In this document: positions 6,147 through 64,000 of the stretch, piece after piece | How the letters are laid out: each line of letters begins with the position of its first letter | Position numbering within the stretch: position 1 is the stretch's first letter | Assembly (NCBI GenBank): GCA_041653955.1 | Contig: JBAZEH010000004.1 | Span: forward strand, 5,191 to 69,190 | Length of the DNA: 64,000 bases | Reading direction: 5' to 3' | Source: Candidatus Omnitrophota bacterium | GTDB taxonomy: Bacteria; Omnitrophota; Gorgyraeia; Gygaellales; Profunditerraquicolaceae | The notes under the pieces: model-generated | Seen by the model: the letters and a program-made list of their open reading frames with translations, nothing else | The model's database searches: none | What the model was told of the DNA's origin: nothing | Translations under genes and position numbers: made by a program

Positions 6147-6332
6147 ATGAAAGCAAAAGAATTACGTAATCTTTCCAAGGAAGAATTGCTGCAGAAAGAA
6201 AGGTCGCTCAAAGAAGAGCTGTTTAAGCTGAATATGCAGCGTTACGCAGGAAGGGTCGATAAGCCGCATATGTTTTCCCTTCTTAAAAGAGATATAGCCA
6301 GGATAAAGACTTTATTAAGGGAAAAGAAATAA
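6147..6332 (+). CDS. rpmC: 50S ribosomal protein L29
   Basis: 61 aa; MKAKELRNLSKEEL... L29. Confidence 0.92.
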   Translation: MKAKELRNLSKEELLQKERSLKEELFKLNMQRYAGRVDKPHMFSLLKRDIARIKTLLREKK

Positions 6333-6355
6333 TAAACCGAAAGGTATAACGCGAA

Positions 6356-6637
6356 ATGAGCAAAAGAAGAAGTTTCACGGGAGAGGTTGTCTCGGATAAG
6401 ATGCAGAAAACGATCATCGTCAGGGTCATGCAGATGAGCAAGCACCCTAAGTACGGAAGGATCGTCAAGAAATATAATAAATTCAAGGCGCACGATGAGA
6501 AGAATACCGCCAGGACAGGCGATGTGGTAAAGATAGAAGAGACCAGGCCTCTGTCAAAAGATAAGCGTTTCAGGTTTATAGGGGTGGTCAGAAAAGCCGA
6601 GATACCTCATGTTAACATTAAGGAGCAGGCAGAATGA
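6356..6637 (+). CDS. rpsQ: 30S ribosomal protein S17
   Basis: 93 aa; S17 OB-fold family. Confidence 0.93.
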   Translation: MSKRRSFTGEVVSDKMQKTIIVRVMQMSKHPKYGRIVKKYNKFKAHDEKNTARTGDVVKIEETRPLSKDKRFRFIGVVRKAEIPHVNIKEQAE

Positions 6638-9439: not shown

Positions 9440-9904
9440 ATGCAGGAAATTAATATTGAACAGCGTCAGGAATTTGTAGAGAAAGTTATTACCATTAACC
9501 GCGTAACTAAAGTTACTAAGGGCGGTAAAAAAATGTCTTTCAGCGCCCTGGTAGTCGTGGGCGACACCAAGGGGCGCATGGCATTTGCCTTAGGCAAGGC
9601 AAATGAAGTAGCGGATGCCATCCGCAAAGGCCTTTTAAAAGCGAAGAAAGAACTGTTCCGTGTCCCTATGGAGGGCTCGACTATACCTCATGAGATAATA
9701 GGAGAATACGGGGCTGCCAAAGTGCTGCTTAAACCCGCTTCTGAAGGGACGGGGGTTATAGCTGCCGGACCGGTGAGGGCGGTATGCGAAGCGGCCGGCA
9801 TAAAAGATATCTTAACCAAATGCCTTAGGTCAAATACCCCGCTGAACGTCATCAAGGCGACGGTAGAAGGCTTAAAGAACCTGAAAACAGAGAGAAATGG
9901 ATAA
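9440..9904 (+). CDS. rpsE: 30S ribosomal protein S5
   Basis: 154 aa; S5 dsRBD plus C-terminal domain. Confidence 0.95.
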
Positions 9905-10388: not shown

Positions 10389-11728
10389 GCGCATTAGTTA
10401 ATTCATTCAAGATACCCGATCTAAAAAGGCGCATTCTCATAACAGCCGCGCTTATTACCGTATACCGCATAGGCTGTTATGTCCCTACTCCCGGGATAGA
10501 CGGAGGGGCCCTTGCTGAATTTTTCAGCCGTATAGCCAAGACCCAGGGGGGCGCGCTCTTTGGAATAATAAATATGTTTTCAGGCGGCGCAATGGAGAGG
10601 CTTACCATTTTCGCGCTGGGGATAATGCCGTATATCTCGGCATCTATCATCCTGCAGCTGTTGACCGCGGTCATACCGGCGCTTGAAAAGCTGGCAAAGG
10701 AAGGCAAGGCCGGATACGAAAAGATAAACCAGTATACGCGTTACGGAACCGTAGGCCTTGCGCTGGTCCAGTCTTTCTTTATAGCCCTGTGGCTTGAAGA
10801 CCCTGCCCGTTTTGAAGGCCTGAAGATAGTTTTATACCCCGGGTGGGGGTTTCGCGTGCTTACCGTCCTTACGCTTACTACCGGCACAATATTCATAATG
10901 TGGCTGGGAGAGCAGATACAGGAGAGAGGGATAGGCAACGGTATATCATTAGTCATCACGGCCGGCATTATTTCAAGGATATGGCCGGCGATGAACCAGC
11001 TCTTTATATTGATCTCCCCGTTTTCTCCGGCGCGCAGGCAGATACAGCCCGTTACCTTGCTGATTATGGCGGCCCTTCTGGTCGGAGTAGTTTTCGCGGT
11101 AATATTGATCACGCAGGGGCAAAGAAAGATACCTGTCCAGTACGCGCGCAGGATAGTGGGCAGGAAGATATTCGGCGGCCAGAGCACTTATATACCTTTA
11201 AAGGTTGATACTTCCGGGGTCATCGCAATCATCTTTGCGCAGTCTATAATACTTTTTCCCGCGACGATCGCGTCTTTCGTGCCTAACCCGGCGTTTCAGA
11301 GGTGGGCGCAGGGGTTGGTCAGGGGTCACCTGCTTTACACGGCAGTATATTCCTTGCTGATCATATTCTTTTGTTATTTTTATACCGCCATAGTGTTTAA
11401 CCCGGCAGACCTCTCCGACAATATGAAAAAGTACGGAGGTTTTATACCGGGTATCAGGCCGGGGGCGCCGACTACGGAGTTCCTGGATTACGTGATGACG
11501 AGGATAACGCTGGCGGGCGCGCTTTTTATAGCATTTATAGCCATATTCCCGGATTTTCTTATGGCGTGGCTGAAAGTCCCGTATCTTATAGCGTCATTCT
11601 TCGGCGGGACGGGTATACTGATCATAGTAGGCGTAATACTTGATACTTTAAAGCAGATAGAATCGCACCTTCTCATGCACCATTATGAAGGCTTTATTAA
11701 ATCAGGACGCATCAGGGGCAGAAGGTAA
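10382..11728 (+). CDS. secY: preprotein translocase subunit SecY (GTG start)
   Basis: 448 aa polytopic membrane protein; SecY family order and motifs. Confidence 0.95.
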   Translation: MLGALVNSFKIPDLKRRILITAALITVYRIGCYVPTPGIDGGALAEFFSRIAKTQGGALFGIINMFSGGAMERLTIFALGIMPYISASIILQLLTAVIPALEKLAKEGKAGYEKINQYTRYGTVGLALVQSFFIALWLEDPARFEGLKIVLYPGWGFRVLTVLTLTTGTIFIMWLGEQIQERGIGNGISLVITAGIISRIWPAMNQLFILISPFSPARRQIQPVTLLIMAALLVGVVFAVILITQGQRKIPVQYARRIVGRKIFGGQSTYIPLKVDTSGVIAIIFAQSIILFPATIASFVPNPAFQRWAQGLVRGHLLYTAVYSLLIIFFCYFYTAIVFNPADLSDNMKKYGGFIPGIRPGAPTTEFLDYVMTRITLAGALFIAFIAIFPDFLMAWLKVPYLIASFFGGTGILIIVGVILDTLKQIESHLLMHHYEGFIKSGRIRGRR

Positions 11729-29923: not shown

Positions 29924-29970
29924 AGCCCCGAAAAAACAAAAATTATTTTTGTTTTTTTCGGGGTTTTTTA
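29924..29970 (+). terminator. intrinsic terminator serving as the riboswitch expression platform
   Basis: ccccgaaaaaacaaaa...ttttgtttttttcgggg stem followed by TTTTTT, 24 nt before the btuB-like ATG. Confidence 0.8.
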
Positions 29971-60626: not shown

Positions 60627-62036
60627 ATGATTATTATATTTATTCTGATAAGTTTTGCGCTTGGTTACGCGATAGCGGCATGGTATCAGCCGAAAAAATC
60701 CCTATCTCCCAAAGTAGCGCCGCCGCAAGAAACCCCGGCCCCGCCCCCCGCCCCATCTTGTTTAGAGGATAAGATATGGTATGAATCAGAGCTGGATTTC
60801 CTGTTCAAATTCAATGAAAAACTTTCTTTAAATCTTACCTTTCAGGGCGTAGTGCAATGTATTACAGAAGCCGCGCACAATTTCCTGCCGATCGAGCGCG
60901 CCGCGCTCCTTGTATGGGATAAAAATTCACAAAATCTTACGCTTGCCTGCTCTGCCGGGTGGGACCGCGGCCGCGGCCAGGGGCCCCTGGTAGTGGGCCT
61001 GGACAGCATCTCCGGGCTTGTGATACGCAACAGGGATGTGCTGCTTGTGCCGGACCTGGCCCAGGAAGAATACCTGAATAAACTGAAAAAAGAAGATTTT
61101 TTACAGAAATCATTTATCAGCGCGCCGATTATATATAACGAAGAGGTTTTAGGCGTATTGCATGTCTGCGATAAGAAGACGCCGGGGCCTTTCACGCAAC
61201 GGGAGGTTTCGGTAGTGTTGAATATCGTCCGTATGGGCGCTATCGCTATGCAGAATGTGCGGCTCTACGAACAGGTCCGCAAAGAAGCGGAAGAATTAAA
61301 GATCGCTTACGATGAATTAAAAGAGATGCAGGATAAGCTGATCCAATCAGAGAAACTCAAAGCGATCGGCCATTTGGCAAGCGGGGTAGCCCACGATATG
61401 AGAAATCCCCTGGGGATCATAATGCAGGGGGTTGTTTATCTGGAGCAGATAATACCTCCGGGGGCAAAAGAGCCGCGCGAGACCTTATCCATGCTCAAGG
61501 ATAGCGTGGAAAGGGCGGACAAGATAGTTATCTCGCTTCTGGATTTCTCAAGGGCTACTAAGCTGGAATTACAACCGGAACAGATCGGCCCCATACTGGA
61601 GAACTCCTTGAATCTGGTAAAAAAAGAACTGAAGGATATAGAAGTAACCAGCGAGATCCAGGAACGCCTGCCGATGGTTTCGGCAGATAAAAATAAACTG
61701 ACCCAGGTATTCATTAACCTGTTCATAAACGCCTCCCACGCGATGCCCGCAGGAGGCAGGCTCTTTGTCCGCGGTTTCCTTAAAGAAGGCTGTTTTGAAG
61801 GTAAAGAGAAGGCCGTTGTTATTGAGATTGAGGACACGGGAACAGGGATCCCCGAAGAAAACCTCAAAGATATCTTCAACCCTTTTTTTACTACAAAGGG
61901 GCAGGGCAAAGGGACCGGCCTGGGATTATCTATAACCCAGACTATTATCAGTATGCACAAAGGGCTGATAGAGGTGAAAAGCCGGGTGAATAAAGGCGCT
62001 AAGTTTATAATTACTTTAAGGGCTCTTAACGATTAA
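60627..62036 (+). CDS. sensor histidine kinase (TM, GAF, HisKA, HATPase_c)
   Basis: H-box HLASGVAHDMRNPL; N, G1 and G2 boxes. Confidence 0.88.
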   Translation: MIIIFILISFALGYAIAAWYQPKKSLSPKVAPPQETPAPPPAPSCLEDKIWYESELDFLFKFNEKLSLNLTFQGVVQCITEAAHNFLPIERAALLVWDKNSQNLTLACSAGWDRGRGQGPLVVGLDSISGLVIRNRDVLLVPDLAQEEYLNKLKKEDFLQKSFISAPIIYNEEVLGVLHVCDKKTPGPFTQREVSVVLNIVRMGAIAMQNVRLYEQVRKEAEELKIAYDELKEMQDKLIQSEKLKAIGHLASGVAHDMRNPLGIIMQGVVYLEQIIPPGAKEPRETLSMLKDSVERADKIVISLLDFSRATKLELQPEQIGPILENSLNLVKKELKDIEVTSEIQERLPMVSADKNKLTQVFINLFINASHAMPAGGRLFVRGFLKEGCFEGKEKAVVIEIEDTGTGIPEENLKDIFNPFFTTKGQGKGTGLGLSITQTIISMHKGLIEVKSRVNKGAKFIITLRALND

Positions 62037-62079
62037 CGGCCGATTGGATCGGCGCGCGCTGTTGCGCTGGAGGGAGAGT

Positions 62080-62457
62080 ATGGAGAAAAAGAAAATACTG
62101 ATCATTGACGATGAGGAAAATTTTGCCAAGCTGGTTAAAAAGAACATAGAGCGGACAGGAGAATTTGAGGCATACACGGCAACAAACGGGGAGGATGGCC
62201 TGAAATTAGTCAGAGAGCTGAAGCCTGACCTGGTATTGCTTGATATGATAATGCCGGATATGGATGGCGCTGACGTTGCTACCCAAATAAGGGATGATGA
62301 AAGCATAAAGGATACCTCCATTGTATTCCTGACCGCGATGGTAAGGCCGGATGAGACCGACCCCCGGATGGGCTTTACCAAAGGGTATTCTCTTGTATCA
62401 AAGACTGTAACCGTAAAAGAACTTTTAGCGTGTATTAAAGAAAATATAAAATATTGA
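62080..62457 (+). CDS. single-domain response regulator (receiver only)
   Basis: ILIIDDE...LDMIMPDMDG with the phospho-acceptor Asp. Confidence 0.85.
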   Translation: MEKKKILIIDDEENFAKLVKKNIERTGEFEAYTATNGEDGLKLVRELKPDLVLLDMIMPDMDGADVATQIRDDESIKDTSIVFLTAMVRPDETDPRMGFTKGYSLVSKTVTVKELLACIKENIKY

Positions 62458-62465
62458 GGTGAACT

Positions 62466-62954
62466 ATGAAAAAACTTATCTTATTAGCGCTGTTCGTATG
62501 CCTTCTACCCGTATCTTCCTATGCTATATCAAACAGCGATTTTGCCGCGGCTAAAAGCCAATTATCCTCTGCCTCCGCCACACTAACAAGTAGCCTGCTC
62601 CAGATATCAGGGATGCAGCAAGACGAGCAGGAAGCCCTCCAGGAGATAATAAATGAACTGGAGAACGGGGTACTTGCAATTCAAAGGTTCCTTGAATTGT
62701 CCGCTCTGCACGGAGCAGGCGTATTATCCGCTTCATCGGAAGCAGTCGGGATACTTACAGAGGCATCGCTGGATGGTATTGACCTTCTAACCGGTATCCA
62801 GGAAGGGCTGCAGGCCCAATTAGGGATGCTCGTTGACGGAAAAGTAATAAATATCGTAGAAGAAAGTATAGCTGCTATTGAAAAAGCAATAAACGCACTT
62901 AAAACGTTTCAAAGCAGGCTTAGCGAATCAGAGGCAAAAAAATCCGGCGGATGA
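62466..62954 (+). CDS. secreted all-helical protein, unknown
   Basis: 162 aa; signal peptide; Ala/Leu/Glu/Gln-rich. Confidence 0.5.
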   Translation: MKKLILLALFVCLLPVSSYAISNSDFAAAKSQLSSASATLTSSLLQISGMQQDEQEALQEIINELENGVLAIQRFLELSALHGAGVLSASSEAVGILTEASLDGIDLLTGIQEGLQAQLGMLVDGKVINIVEESIAAIEKAINALKTFQSRLSESEAKKSGG

Positions 62955-63150
62955 TCTTGGCAGATCACCCGATGCAAGATAAGGAGGGTAAATTGATTGA
63001 ACGAATGATAAAACATAAATACTTTTTTCATATTGTAACGCTTTTAGCCATTTTAAGCTCAACTCTCTTATTCATCGTTTTCAGCGGCTCCTCAAATTAG
63101 CAAAAGGCATAATCCAACCGCCAAAATCCCTGCCAGGCCTGTTTTTTATT

Positions 63151-63202
63151 GACATCTTACGCGGCTATGTTATACTTGTTATGAACATCTGTTCATAACT
63201 AA
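63151..63202 (+). promoter_or_regulatory. sigma70 promoter (TTGACA, 16 nt, TATACT) followed by a perfect 10-2-10 palindrome GTTATGAACA-TC-TGTTCATAAC (putative operator)
   Basis: Read directly; the palindrome lies between the -10 element and the RBS of the DUF134 gene. Confidence 0.6.
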
Positions 63203-63215
63203 AGGAGATAGACCC

Positions 63216-63521
63216 TTGAGGCCTAAGAAGACAAGGTGGGTAAAGTGCGTGCCGGGGGAGCGGTGTTTCAAGCCCTTATGCAAGCCACTAAACAAATGCG
63301 AAGGGGTATACCTTACCCTTGATGAATTTGAGGCGGTGCGCCTTGCCTCCATAGAAGGCCTGAAACAGCATGATGCCGCGAAGCTGATGAAGATATCAAG
63401 GCCGACATTCTCGCGCATACTCACTTCCGCCCGGAAAAAGATAGCAGACGGCCTGGTAAATATCAAGGCGATACGCATTGAAGGCGGATGCTGCAAAATA
63501 GGGGGGAAGAGAAAAATATGA
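63216..63521 (+). CDS. DUF134 (UPF0251) predicted DNA-binding protein (TTG start)
   Basis: 101 aa; CxxxxC...C pattern plus HTH-like LSQREAAELMGISRPTFSR-type region. Confidence 0.7.
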   Translation: MRPKKTRWVKCVPGERCFKPLCKPLNKCEGVYLTLDEFEAVRLASIEGLKQHDAAKLMKISRPTFSRILTSARKKIADGLVNIKAIRIEGGCCKIGGKRKI

Positions 63522-64000
63522 AAGAATGGAAAAAGTTTCTTTTTGTGCTAACCGCCTTCCTGGCCTGCTTTTACCTGCCGATAGAAAAGCTCTCCTTTAG
63601 CGGCCCGGTATTTGAGGCGCTCGCGCTTGTCAAATGGTATGCCAGGGAGCATGTCATCTTATGCCTTGTCCCGGCGTTCTTTATCGCAGGCGCCATCTGC
63701 GTATTCGTAAGCCAGGCATCCGTAATGAAATACTTCGGCGCCAAGGCGAATAAATTCCTTTCATACAGCGTGGCTTCCGTCTCGGGTGCGATCCTTGCGG
63801 TCTGCTCCTGCACGGTCTTGCCGCTATTTTCCGGCATATATAAAAGAGGTGCCGGCTTGGGCCCTGCGACAGCCTTCCTTTATTCCGGGCCTGCCATAAA
63901 TATCCTGGCTATAATCCTTACCGCCCGCATACTCGGCTGGCAGCTTGGCGTAGCAAGGGTAGTGGGCGCGGTGCTTTTCAGCATAATCATCGGCCTGCTG
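63518..64000 (+). CDS. ArsP/DUF318-family permease, N-terminal part (runs off the window end)
   Basis: Polytopic membrane protein; AVCSCTVLPLF CxC motif; ATGA overlap with DUF134. Confidence 0.6.
   Translation, partial: MKEWKKFLFVLTAFLACFYLPIEKLSFSGPVFEALALVKWYAREHVILCLVPAFFIAGAICVFVSQASVMKYFGAKANKFLSYSVASVSGAILAVCSCTVLPLFSGIYKRGAGLGPATAFLYSGPAINILAIILTARILGWQLGVARVVGAVLFSIIIGLL

Follow-up and report, generated by a model that had tools for sequence, protein, structure and literature searches.

Control of arsenic resistance (ars) operons is generally ascribed to repressors of the ArsR/SmtB family, such as R773 ArsR (PMC6205960). The present analysis concerns a candidate operator, a perfect 22-bp palindrome, and the DUF134/UPF0251 gene that follows it near the end of a stretch of 64,000 nucleotides (the window) from a Candidatus Omnitrophota bacterium (assembly GCA_041653955.1, contig JBAZEH010000004.1). 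As with ArsR/SmtB repressors, a small gene at the head of an ars operon encodes the regulator; autoregulation through a palindrome in the promoter is predicted, and derepression on binding of trivalent arsenic to about three cysteines is presumed. However, the two proteins are unrelated in fold and family, and the cysteines of DUF134 are located in an N-terminal arm and a C-terminal CC pair. Recruitment of a non-ArsR family to arsenic genes has a precedent in MarR_ars (Achromobacter AdMarR_ars), an As(III)/Sb(III)-responsive repressor of its own gene and a neighbouring one, in which a subfamily-specific vicinal pair (Cys36-Cys37) and a third cysteine (Cys157) are needed for the response (bioRxiv 10.1101/2021.08.12.456183). 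DUF134 likewise combines a vicinal pair with a distant cysteine, although MarR_ars has a winged-helix MarR fold, comes from Proteobacteria and has been tested experimentally, whereas the role of DUF134 is predicted.

The DNA-binding part of DUF134 is closest to that of Bacillus subtilis DeoR (SorC family; 7bhy, 8r7y), with which it shares a homologous helix-turn-helix (HTH), the register of the TGAACA half-site and a strand after the HTH. DeoR differs in its sugar-phosphate effector domain of ~260 amino acids (aa), its tetrameric state, its bipartite operator of 39 bp, located upstream of the promoter core, and its ligand deoxyribose-5-phosphate, whereas DUF134 consists of 101 aa, with an N-terminal arm, and has a single 20-bp box downstream of the -10 element. 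Judged against the SorC/DeoR family, the N-terminal DeoR-type HTH is present in DUF134 and the C-terminal double-Rossmann effector domain is missing from so short a protein. Within the DUF134 family, modules with NifB/NifX genes in archaea, anaerobes and enterobacterial plasmids also carry a CATATG-centred palindrome between promoter and Shine-Dalgarno sequence; in many of them the TTATGAACA-N2-TGTTCATAA box is identical to that described here, and some have an SRQT..N recognition helix and a GGCATATGCC-type box. These modules differ in their NifX-like, DUF5320, DGC or radical-SAM cargo and in the absence of Cys22 and Cys92-Cys93. The permease next to DUF134 in the window resembles Campylobacter jejuni ArsP, responsible for methylarsenite efflux, in its PF03773 family and, judging from relatives, its ars operon setting (PMC6205960). 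The DUF134 family comprises 3,469 representative clusters (50% identity, E ≤ 0.001), with thousands in anaerobes, and is found on 195 plasmids, many of them conjugative plasmids of enterobacteria such as Klebsiella, Citrobacter and E. coli. The literature searched contained no study of DUF134/UPF0251 function and no report that connects DUF134 with arsenic, and no solved DUF134 structure exists.

Comparison of the window with related loci leads to the proposal that DUF134 is an autoregulated, dimeric repressor of the DeoR type that controls the ars operon in place of ArsR and senses As(III)/methylarsenite through its cysteines, a reading to which a probability of roughly 0.65 is given. It draws on five features computed from metagenome-assembled genomes and metagenome contigs, namely how conserved the box is and where it lies, its link to DUF134, the ars content of the operon, the homology of the HTH to DeoR and the pattern of cysteines.

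The palindrome at DUF134 promoters

The comparison set consisted of 80 loci from species-representative genomes, nearly all of them Omnitrophota, with a DUF134 protein identity of 77-94%. The 20-bp core TTATGAACA-N2-TGTTCATAA lies two nucleotides past a TGnTAAAnT extended -10 element in 80/80 loci, and the box has the same promoter position in all 81 cases when the window is included, with 10-18 nt between box and start codon in most loci. Information content reaches ~2 bits at nearly every arm position, compared with 1-1.4 bits in the promoter hexamers and 0-0.3 bits in the flanks. Mean pairwise identity is 0.935 for the 20-mer and 0.85 for codon positions 1+2, against 0.35 at the fourfold-degenerate sites of the neighbouring gene, which are saturated, and 0.29 upstream of the -35 element, where the sequence is random. 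The central TC of the palindrome in the window is a rare variant; the commonest centre is TA, which gives a perfect 20-bp palindrome.

The box was searched for, with up to 4 mismatches in 18 positions, in 826 kb made up of the window and the 80 loci (L001-L080), and not of whole Omnitrophota genomes. There were 81 occurrences, every one at a DUF134 promoter, and elsewhere only three further matches with 4 mismatches each, so the box is not a generic repeat in Omnitrophota. No second operator was detected inside the operon within ~6 kb in any locus, nor a second copy of the palindrome in the 64-kb window, even at 3 mismatches. Perfect palindromes (arms ≥10 bp, loop ≤4) number three in the window against ~0.27 expected from first-order Markov simulations, which is unusual, yet rarity by itself is not decisive, and it is the comparative evidence that marks this palindrome as more than a product of chance.

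In the window, the promoter matches the consensus at 11/12 positions, with a 16-nt spacer that ends in TGT, and is the top promoter-like site within 62300-64000. The palindrome begins one base past TATACT. Transcription is predicted to start at about 63183, so the palindrome should cover the start. DNA similarity to related loci sets in at the promoter (63141-63179), with unaligned sequence further upstream, and the genes upstream of the cassette vary among loci; the conserved cassette therefore begins at the promoter. None of the related loci belongs to the species of the window, to which their best DNA identity is 77% (relatives ~76%). The first-pass annotation of this DNA had described a near-consensus sigma-70 promoter, a perfect inverted repeat following it and a TTG-started DUF134 gene behind, and had taken the repeat for an autoregulatory operator. 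Promoter, repeat and gene are as described (Table 1), and across the 81 promoters the repeat behaves as a conserved operator would; the objection raised with that claim, that the palindrome might be a generic repeat, does not apply in the 826 kb of Omnitrophota DNA.

In some metagenome-assembled genomes (MAGs), two or three separate DUF134-ars cassettes are present, each with a box of its own (L011/L047/L050; L013/L032; L037/L049), suggesting that the cassette as a whole has been duplicated or has spread horizontally.

Arsenic genes, cysteines and the candidate ligand

Clustering of the genes across loci gives the order DUF134, ArsP_1 permease, (CDF transporter), ArsM, ArsE, ArsF, ArsG, (269-aa Fe-S-domain protein), ACR3, (ArsC), where the genes in brackets occur only in some loci. 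Genes of the ars type are found downstream of DUF134 in 79/80 loci, and the remaining locus offers only 387 nt. An ArsP_1 permease is present in 71 of the 80, with no ArsP_1 gene called downstream in the other nine, and in several loci ACR3, ArsM-ACR3 or ArsF-ArsG-ACR3 come right after DUF134. Since the permease is absent from some loci in which other ars genes follow directly, the constant partner of DUF134 is the ars operon and not the permease. Among the clustered genes of the 80 loci, no recurrent ArsR-like or other regulator gene cluster was found besides DUF134. The ArsC of these operons is a protein of the low-molecular-weight phosphatase type which scores below the equivalog cutoff.

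In the window, the stop codon of DUF134 and the start codon of the permease overlap as ATGA, and a 4-nt start/stop overlap between DUF134 and the next gene is shared by 50/80 related loci. The permease fragment shares 86-89% identity with its counterparts of 390-400 aa in related loci, and full-length relatives score 255 bits against PF03773. The CSC motif at residues 96-98 (context AVCSCT), which lies within a membrane-spanning segment, recurs in 72/72 permeases of related loci. A C-x-C pair in a transmembrane helix is the defining mark of the methylarsenite exporter ArsP, and the motif is reported, by Chen and colleagues in 2015, to be required in ArsP. A second type of permease (~320 aa, with PFCSCS) is only ~30% identical to the 390-aa AVCSCT type, and the type found in the window has an insertion relative to the Pfam model.

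These results bear on what had been claimed for the second half of the cassette. The translational coupling through ATGA, the CSC motif and the assignment of the permease to PF03773 all stand. The proposed regulator-permease pair holds in so far as the permease adjoins DUF134 and is coupled to it; it falls short as a description of the system, whose constant partner is the whole ars operon. The ligand, left open between metal, metalloid and thiol, can be narrowed to arsenic as a prediction, because the cassette of relatives continues as ArsM-ArsE-ArsF-ArsG-ACR3(-ArsC); inspection of the genes downstream, which had been recommended, was made in those relatives.

A possible sensor is found in DUF134 itself. 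All 81 sequences of the ars-linked branch have Cys17, Cys92 and Cys93, with Cys11 and Cys22 in 79/81; Cys45 occurs in 58/81 orthologues but is a serine in the window, and Cys28 of the window protein is not conserved. Of the 142 family representatives (≤50% mutual identity), 120 have Gly at position 22, 85 have Tyr or Phe at position 17 and 133 have Asp at position 45, with Cys92 in only 7 and Cys93 in 9. At least three of the five cysteines are present in only 5/141 other representatives, which are the five nearest clusters. A metagenome scan for exact arms of the box returned at least 121 sites, and shares given here and below refer to the matches listed. Among those loci with at least 600 nt of downstream sequence, ars genes follow 36/36 signature-positive and 6/17 signature-negative DUF134 genes (p = 1.6e-7), and several of the six are near-signature or frameshifted. 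The CC pair is placed four residues past the strand at 85-88, and the protein ends eight residues after it.

Several observations tell against arsenic as the ligand, or at least against so specific an assignment. ArsP_1 is a functionally mixed family. Zn, an Fe-S cluster or a different soft metalloid could be the ligand of the five cysteines, or these could respond to the redox state of thiols, and Cys11 and Cys17 are also present in the NifX-linked (plasmid) branch. The structural model covers the DUF134 monomer only, which limits what it says on the proximity of the cysteines. The window itself ends inside the permease, with no further ars gene in it, and the ars genes past ArsP are taken from relatives.

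An unlikely alternative builds on these points: DUF134 would bind the box and autoregulate the operon, with its cysteines sensing a cue other than arsenic, such as thiol/disulfide stress, Sb, Zn, Cu or Cd, or an Fe-S cluster, and the permease and thioredoxin/CcdA-like genes would then form a module for thiol or metal homeostasis. No ArsP-specific model matched the permease, its best NCBIfam matches, far below their cutoffs, being SaoE and the SO_0444 Cu/Zn exporter, and its plasmid homologues are annotated only as "permease". ArsE, ArsF and ArsG resemble thioredoxin or DsbD, four loci contain an inserted CDF transporter, and other DUF134 branches accompany NifX-like proteins that bind cofactors. 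However, ArsM, ACR3, ArsG and ArsF exceed curated NCBIfam cutoffs, the loci without permease place DUF134 right beside ACR3 or ArsM, and the cysteine signature tracks ars genes in the metagenomes.

Proposed recognition of the box and its predicted regulatory effect

The window protein is a bona fide DUF134 member and lies outside ArsR/SmtB by domain content: residues 2-93 align with positions 6-95 of the 98 in PF02001, and besides this family the Pfam scan gave only weak matches to HTH_23, Sigma70_r4_2 and similar domains, with no ArsR-type domain. It holds every family-wide conserved residue listed from alignments of 66 sequences and of the 142 representatives (R2, P3, R7, P13, F18, P20, E39, R42, L43, S61, T64, R67, A72, K75 and G91), is identical (100%) to a protein of an NCBI Candidatus Omnitrophota MAG, and has more than 100 protein clusters at 80-92% identity. 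The AlphaFold2 model (mean predicted confidence, pLDDT, 84.6) has strands at 30-33 and 85-88 and helices at 35-46, 51-58 and 62-81. The HTH spans residues 35-81, with the recognition helix S61-R62-P63-T64-F65-S66-R67.

Homology of this HTH to the DNA-binding domain of DeoR (7bhy) is detected by the family profile (E = 2.8e-7), with SRPTFSRIL aligned to SRPTVSRLL, and the same domain is the top structural match in Foldseek (root-mean-square deviation 0.7, 40 columns, 40% identity). In DeoR complexes, base-specific contacts are made within 5'-TTGAACA-3' through R34 and R39, and two domains are joined into a dimer by the strand that follows the HTH, which forms an antiparallel beta-sheet (PMC11229326). 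By alignment, R34 and R39 map to Arg62 and Arg67 of DUF134, and strand 85-88 would by analogy be the dimer interface. When the DeoR operator OL18 (ATTGAACAA|AATTTCAAT) is aligned on its dyad with the DUF134 box (TTATGAACAT|ATGTTCATAA), TGAACA falls at -7 to -2 in both.

Changes in the helix and in the box also go together. The operator variant TTATGCACA is accompanied by P63S in 4/5 loci, and the association of P63S with any change at box positions 5/6 gives a Fisher p of 2.7e-4, with shared ancestry ignored. Among non-ars DUF134 proteins behind an exact box, Pro63 is found in 27/29 and Arg67 in 29/29, compared with 78/142 for Pro63 family-wide (p = 5e-5, ancestry again ignored). Members with an SRQT..N helix carry palindromes of the GGCATATGCC type at the same place, as exemplified by a second DUF134 gene in L032 and by DUF134-NifX pairs on Citrobacter and Proteus plasmids. 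Taken with the co-location of gene and box, the metagenome scan and the DeoR homology, this covariation suggests that DUF134 itself binds the box.

In the proposed mechanism, a DUF134 dimer would sit on the 20-bp TTATGAACA-N2-TGTTCATAA site, cover the transcription start and block RNA polymerase. Each HTH would read a TGAACA half-site with its SRPTFSR helix (Arg62, Arg67), as in DeoR, and the dimer would probably be held by the post-HTH beta-strand. As(III) and/or methylarsenite may be bound by Cys92-Cys93 together with Cys17, Cys22 and perhaps Cys11; plausibly, binding at the CC pair and the cysteines of the N-terminal arm changes the geometry of the HTH, so that the dimer would be distorted and the DNA released. 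The regulator and the genes co-transcribed with it would then be expressed, the coupled ArsP-like permease first, with ArsM, ArsE/F/G, ACR3 and sometimes ArsC next in relatives and probably likewise beyond the end of the window.

DUF134 might instead act from the box as an activator or a dual regulator, for example by promoter remodelling, a role that would suit an HTH of which the model also resembles sigma-70 region 4. This is improbable on the evidence of the promoter, which is near consensus with an extended -10 element and therefore needs no activator. In addition, the box between the -10 element and the Shine-Dalgarno sequence should cover +1, the typical position for a repressor, and the analogues DeoR, ArsR and MarR_ars are all repressors.

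Of the metagenome matches listed, 82/121 are upstream of a DUF134-family gene, 79 of these within 120 nt, and 12/121 are at contig ends and not judgeable. About 30 diverse members behind such sites lack the ars cysteines and are accompanied by NifX-like (PF02579), DUF5320, DGC, ARMT1-like or radical-SAM genes, mostly NifX-like. Because the same box precedes diverse members with non-ars cargo, it tracks the DUF134 family rather than the cargo.

The case for DUF134 as the reader of the box is weakened by two results. Some 22% of the listed metagenome sites (26, plus one marginal match 1.9 kb off) have no DUF134 gene on the sequence available, among them a recurrent family of 34-bp palindromes, Gastranaerophilales LexA boxes and TetR gene promoters, and the covariation statistics for helix and box take no account of shared ancestry. 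A further difficulty is the core GAAC-N4-GTTC, which is also that of the Gram-positive-type (Cheo) LexA box and is matched by GAACATCTGTTC at 63183-63194, the two boxes having an identical core GAACATATGTTC. The 20-mer TTATGAACA(tt/aa)TGTTCATAA is indeed found unchanged 48 nt upstream of lexA on Candidatus Gastranaerophilales contigs (L125:11648-11667 and L161:6007-6026), with a dinB-like gene adjoining, so the DUF134 box and the LexA box can coincide across phyla. On this account the palindrome could serve LexA, as an SOS box, or some other global regulator, and DUF134 would have a different role, linked to the site only indirectly, which is very improbable for Omnitrophota: no SOS gene adjoins any of the 81 sites, no LexA homologue was found in the 826 kb, and the box is tied there to DUF134 and ars genes, with TTAT/ATAA invariant at its flanks. 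The box moreover accompanies DUF134 in distant branches whose cargo is unrelated, the type of box covaries with the recognition helix, and the homologous HTH of DeoR reads the same half-site.

Least probable of all is an RNA hairpin in the 5' leader acting on mRNA stability or translation in place of a DNA operator, which the perfect 10-bp inverted repeat a few nucleotides before the Shine-Dalgarno sequence and the symmetry of its rare arm changes might suggest, but the sequence itself, beyond pairing, is invariant over 80 species with saturated neutral sites, the expected transcript is without most of the left arm because the box starts 2 nt past the -10 element, and the RNA from the predicted start folds no more than shuffled sequence (z = 0.2) and has no Rfam match, on which grounds an RNA element was rejected.

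The reading of DUF134 as an arsenic-responsive repressor can be widened to the family, with odds that appear even. In this combined form, ArsR would have been replaced phylum-wide by a DUF134 branch with a new cysteine site for trivalent arsenic, and the whole family would consist of minimal autoregulated DeoR-type repressors that share a CATATG-centred palindrome and sense different ligands with their N- and C-terminal arms; members paired with NifX would sense metal cofactors or metal status. The analysis provides the first predicted function, operator motif and DNA-recognition model for the DUF134 family. If the arsenic reading is true, DUF134 would be another independent arsenic-responsive repressor after several types of ArsR site and MarR_ars, and would illustrate control of ars operons in an uncultured phylum. 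A repressor of 101 aa, an operator of 20 bp and a near-consensus sigma-70 promoter might make a compact arsenite/methylarsenite biosensor, which should be transferable to E. coli. Taken together, the cysteine signature and the box could serve to annotate ars operons in metagenomes, and the plasmid-borne DUF134-NifB/NifX pairs would offer an experimentally easy way into the family.

Features of the window and of related loci

Table 1. Coordinates of the cassette in the window, and profile scores of genes that follow DUF134 in related loci
Feature	Position	Strand	Basis	Score (bits)	Cutoff (bits)
-35 hexamer TTGACA	63149-63154	+	consensus scan; 1-1.4 bits of information in 80 orthologous promoters
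Extended -10, TGT + TATACT	63168-63176 (TATACT 63171-63176)	+	orthologous promoters keep TGnTAAAnT
Promoter as a whole	63149-63176	+	consensus scan
Putative operator, perfect palindrome GTTATGAACA-TC-TGTTCATAAC	63178-63199 (conserved core 63179-63198)		10+2+10 inverted repeat
Shine-Dalgarno AAGGAG	63202-63207	+	from sequence; purine-rich block between box and start conserved in relatives
DUF134/UPF0251 regulator (predicted), 101 aa, TTG start	63216-63521	+	PF02001	81	27
Cys11 codon	63246-63248	+
Cys17 codon	63264-63266	+
Cys22 codon	63279-63281	+
Cys92-Cys93 codons	63489-63494	+
ATGA overlap (DUF134 TGA, permease ATG)	63518-63521	+
ArsP_1-family permease, 5' part (161 codons), truncated by window end	63518-64000	+	PF03773	139.5	32.3
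CSC motif of permease	63803-63811	+
ArsM (related loci)			NF008823	358	263
ACR3 (related loci)			TIGR00832	381	283
ArsG (related loci)			NF040495	282	200
ArsF (related loci)			NF040494	111	60
ArsE (related loci)			TIGR00412	107	62

An antisense open reading frame at 63179-63496 (105 aa) was dismissed as a spurious by-product of the sense frame, which is strongly conserved. Directly upstream of the cassette, the window encodes a histidine kinase with GAF, HisKA and HATPase domains (60627-62036), a stand-alone receiver protein (62044-62457) and a protein of 162 aa whose hydrophobic N-terminus resembles a signal peptide (62466-62954). These three are probably unrelated to the cassette because they are not conserved beside it in relatives. 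The other two perfect palindromes of the window, at 9582-9605 and 29933-29955, are, in the order listed, CATTTGCCTT-AGGC-AAGGCAAATG and the AT-rich AAAACAAAAAT-T-ATTTTTGTTTT, both with arms of at least 10 bp.

Some of the related ars operons contain additional genes. In 8/80 loci (L029, at 6303-6476, L031, L032, L036, L054, L058, L072 and L080), a Cys-rich peptide of 50-64 aa (...CCCRPSDKRNDPCCK) is encoded between DUF134 and a permease of the ~320-aa PFCSCS type, and could be a small arsenic-binding chaperone. The 269-aa protein between ArsG and ACR3 (L018:10122-10931 and 6 other loci) has a PF04060 "putative Fe-S cluster" domain that resembles the N-terminus of the corrinoid Fe-S protein/ACDS gamma subunit. 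The second DUF134 gene of L032 (9279-9626) directly follows ArsC; it has no cysteine signature, its helix reads SRQTFGN, and it is served by a separate TTGACA promoter and a TTATTGGCATATGCTAAAA element. The genes behind it encode proteins of 118 aa and 784 aa, the latter a membrane protein.

Outside Omnitrophota, DUF134 genes paired with NifB/NifX genes and encoding an SRQTLAN helix are present on the Citrobacter plasmid pKPC-933d (L201:3230-3615) and on a Proteus plasmid (L202:3440-3815), with palindromes of the TATGGCATATGC(C/T)ATA type upstream. In L101, a DUF5320 gene and a DUF134 gene lacking the cysteine signature lie behind a pair of neighbouring palindromes (10440-10489), TTATGGGCATATGCCCATTA and TTATGAACATATGTTCATAA. 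The 34-bp palindrome ggtcagtTTATGAACATATGTTCATAAactgacc is intergenic, on contigs of ~49% G+C with no DUF134 near (L084, L086, L097, L155, L166 and L191), and occurs twice in L155, at 1218 and 10929, 9.7 kb apart.

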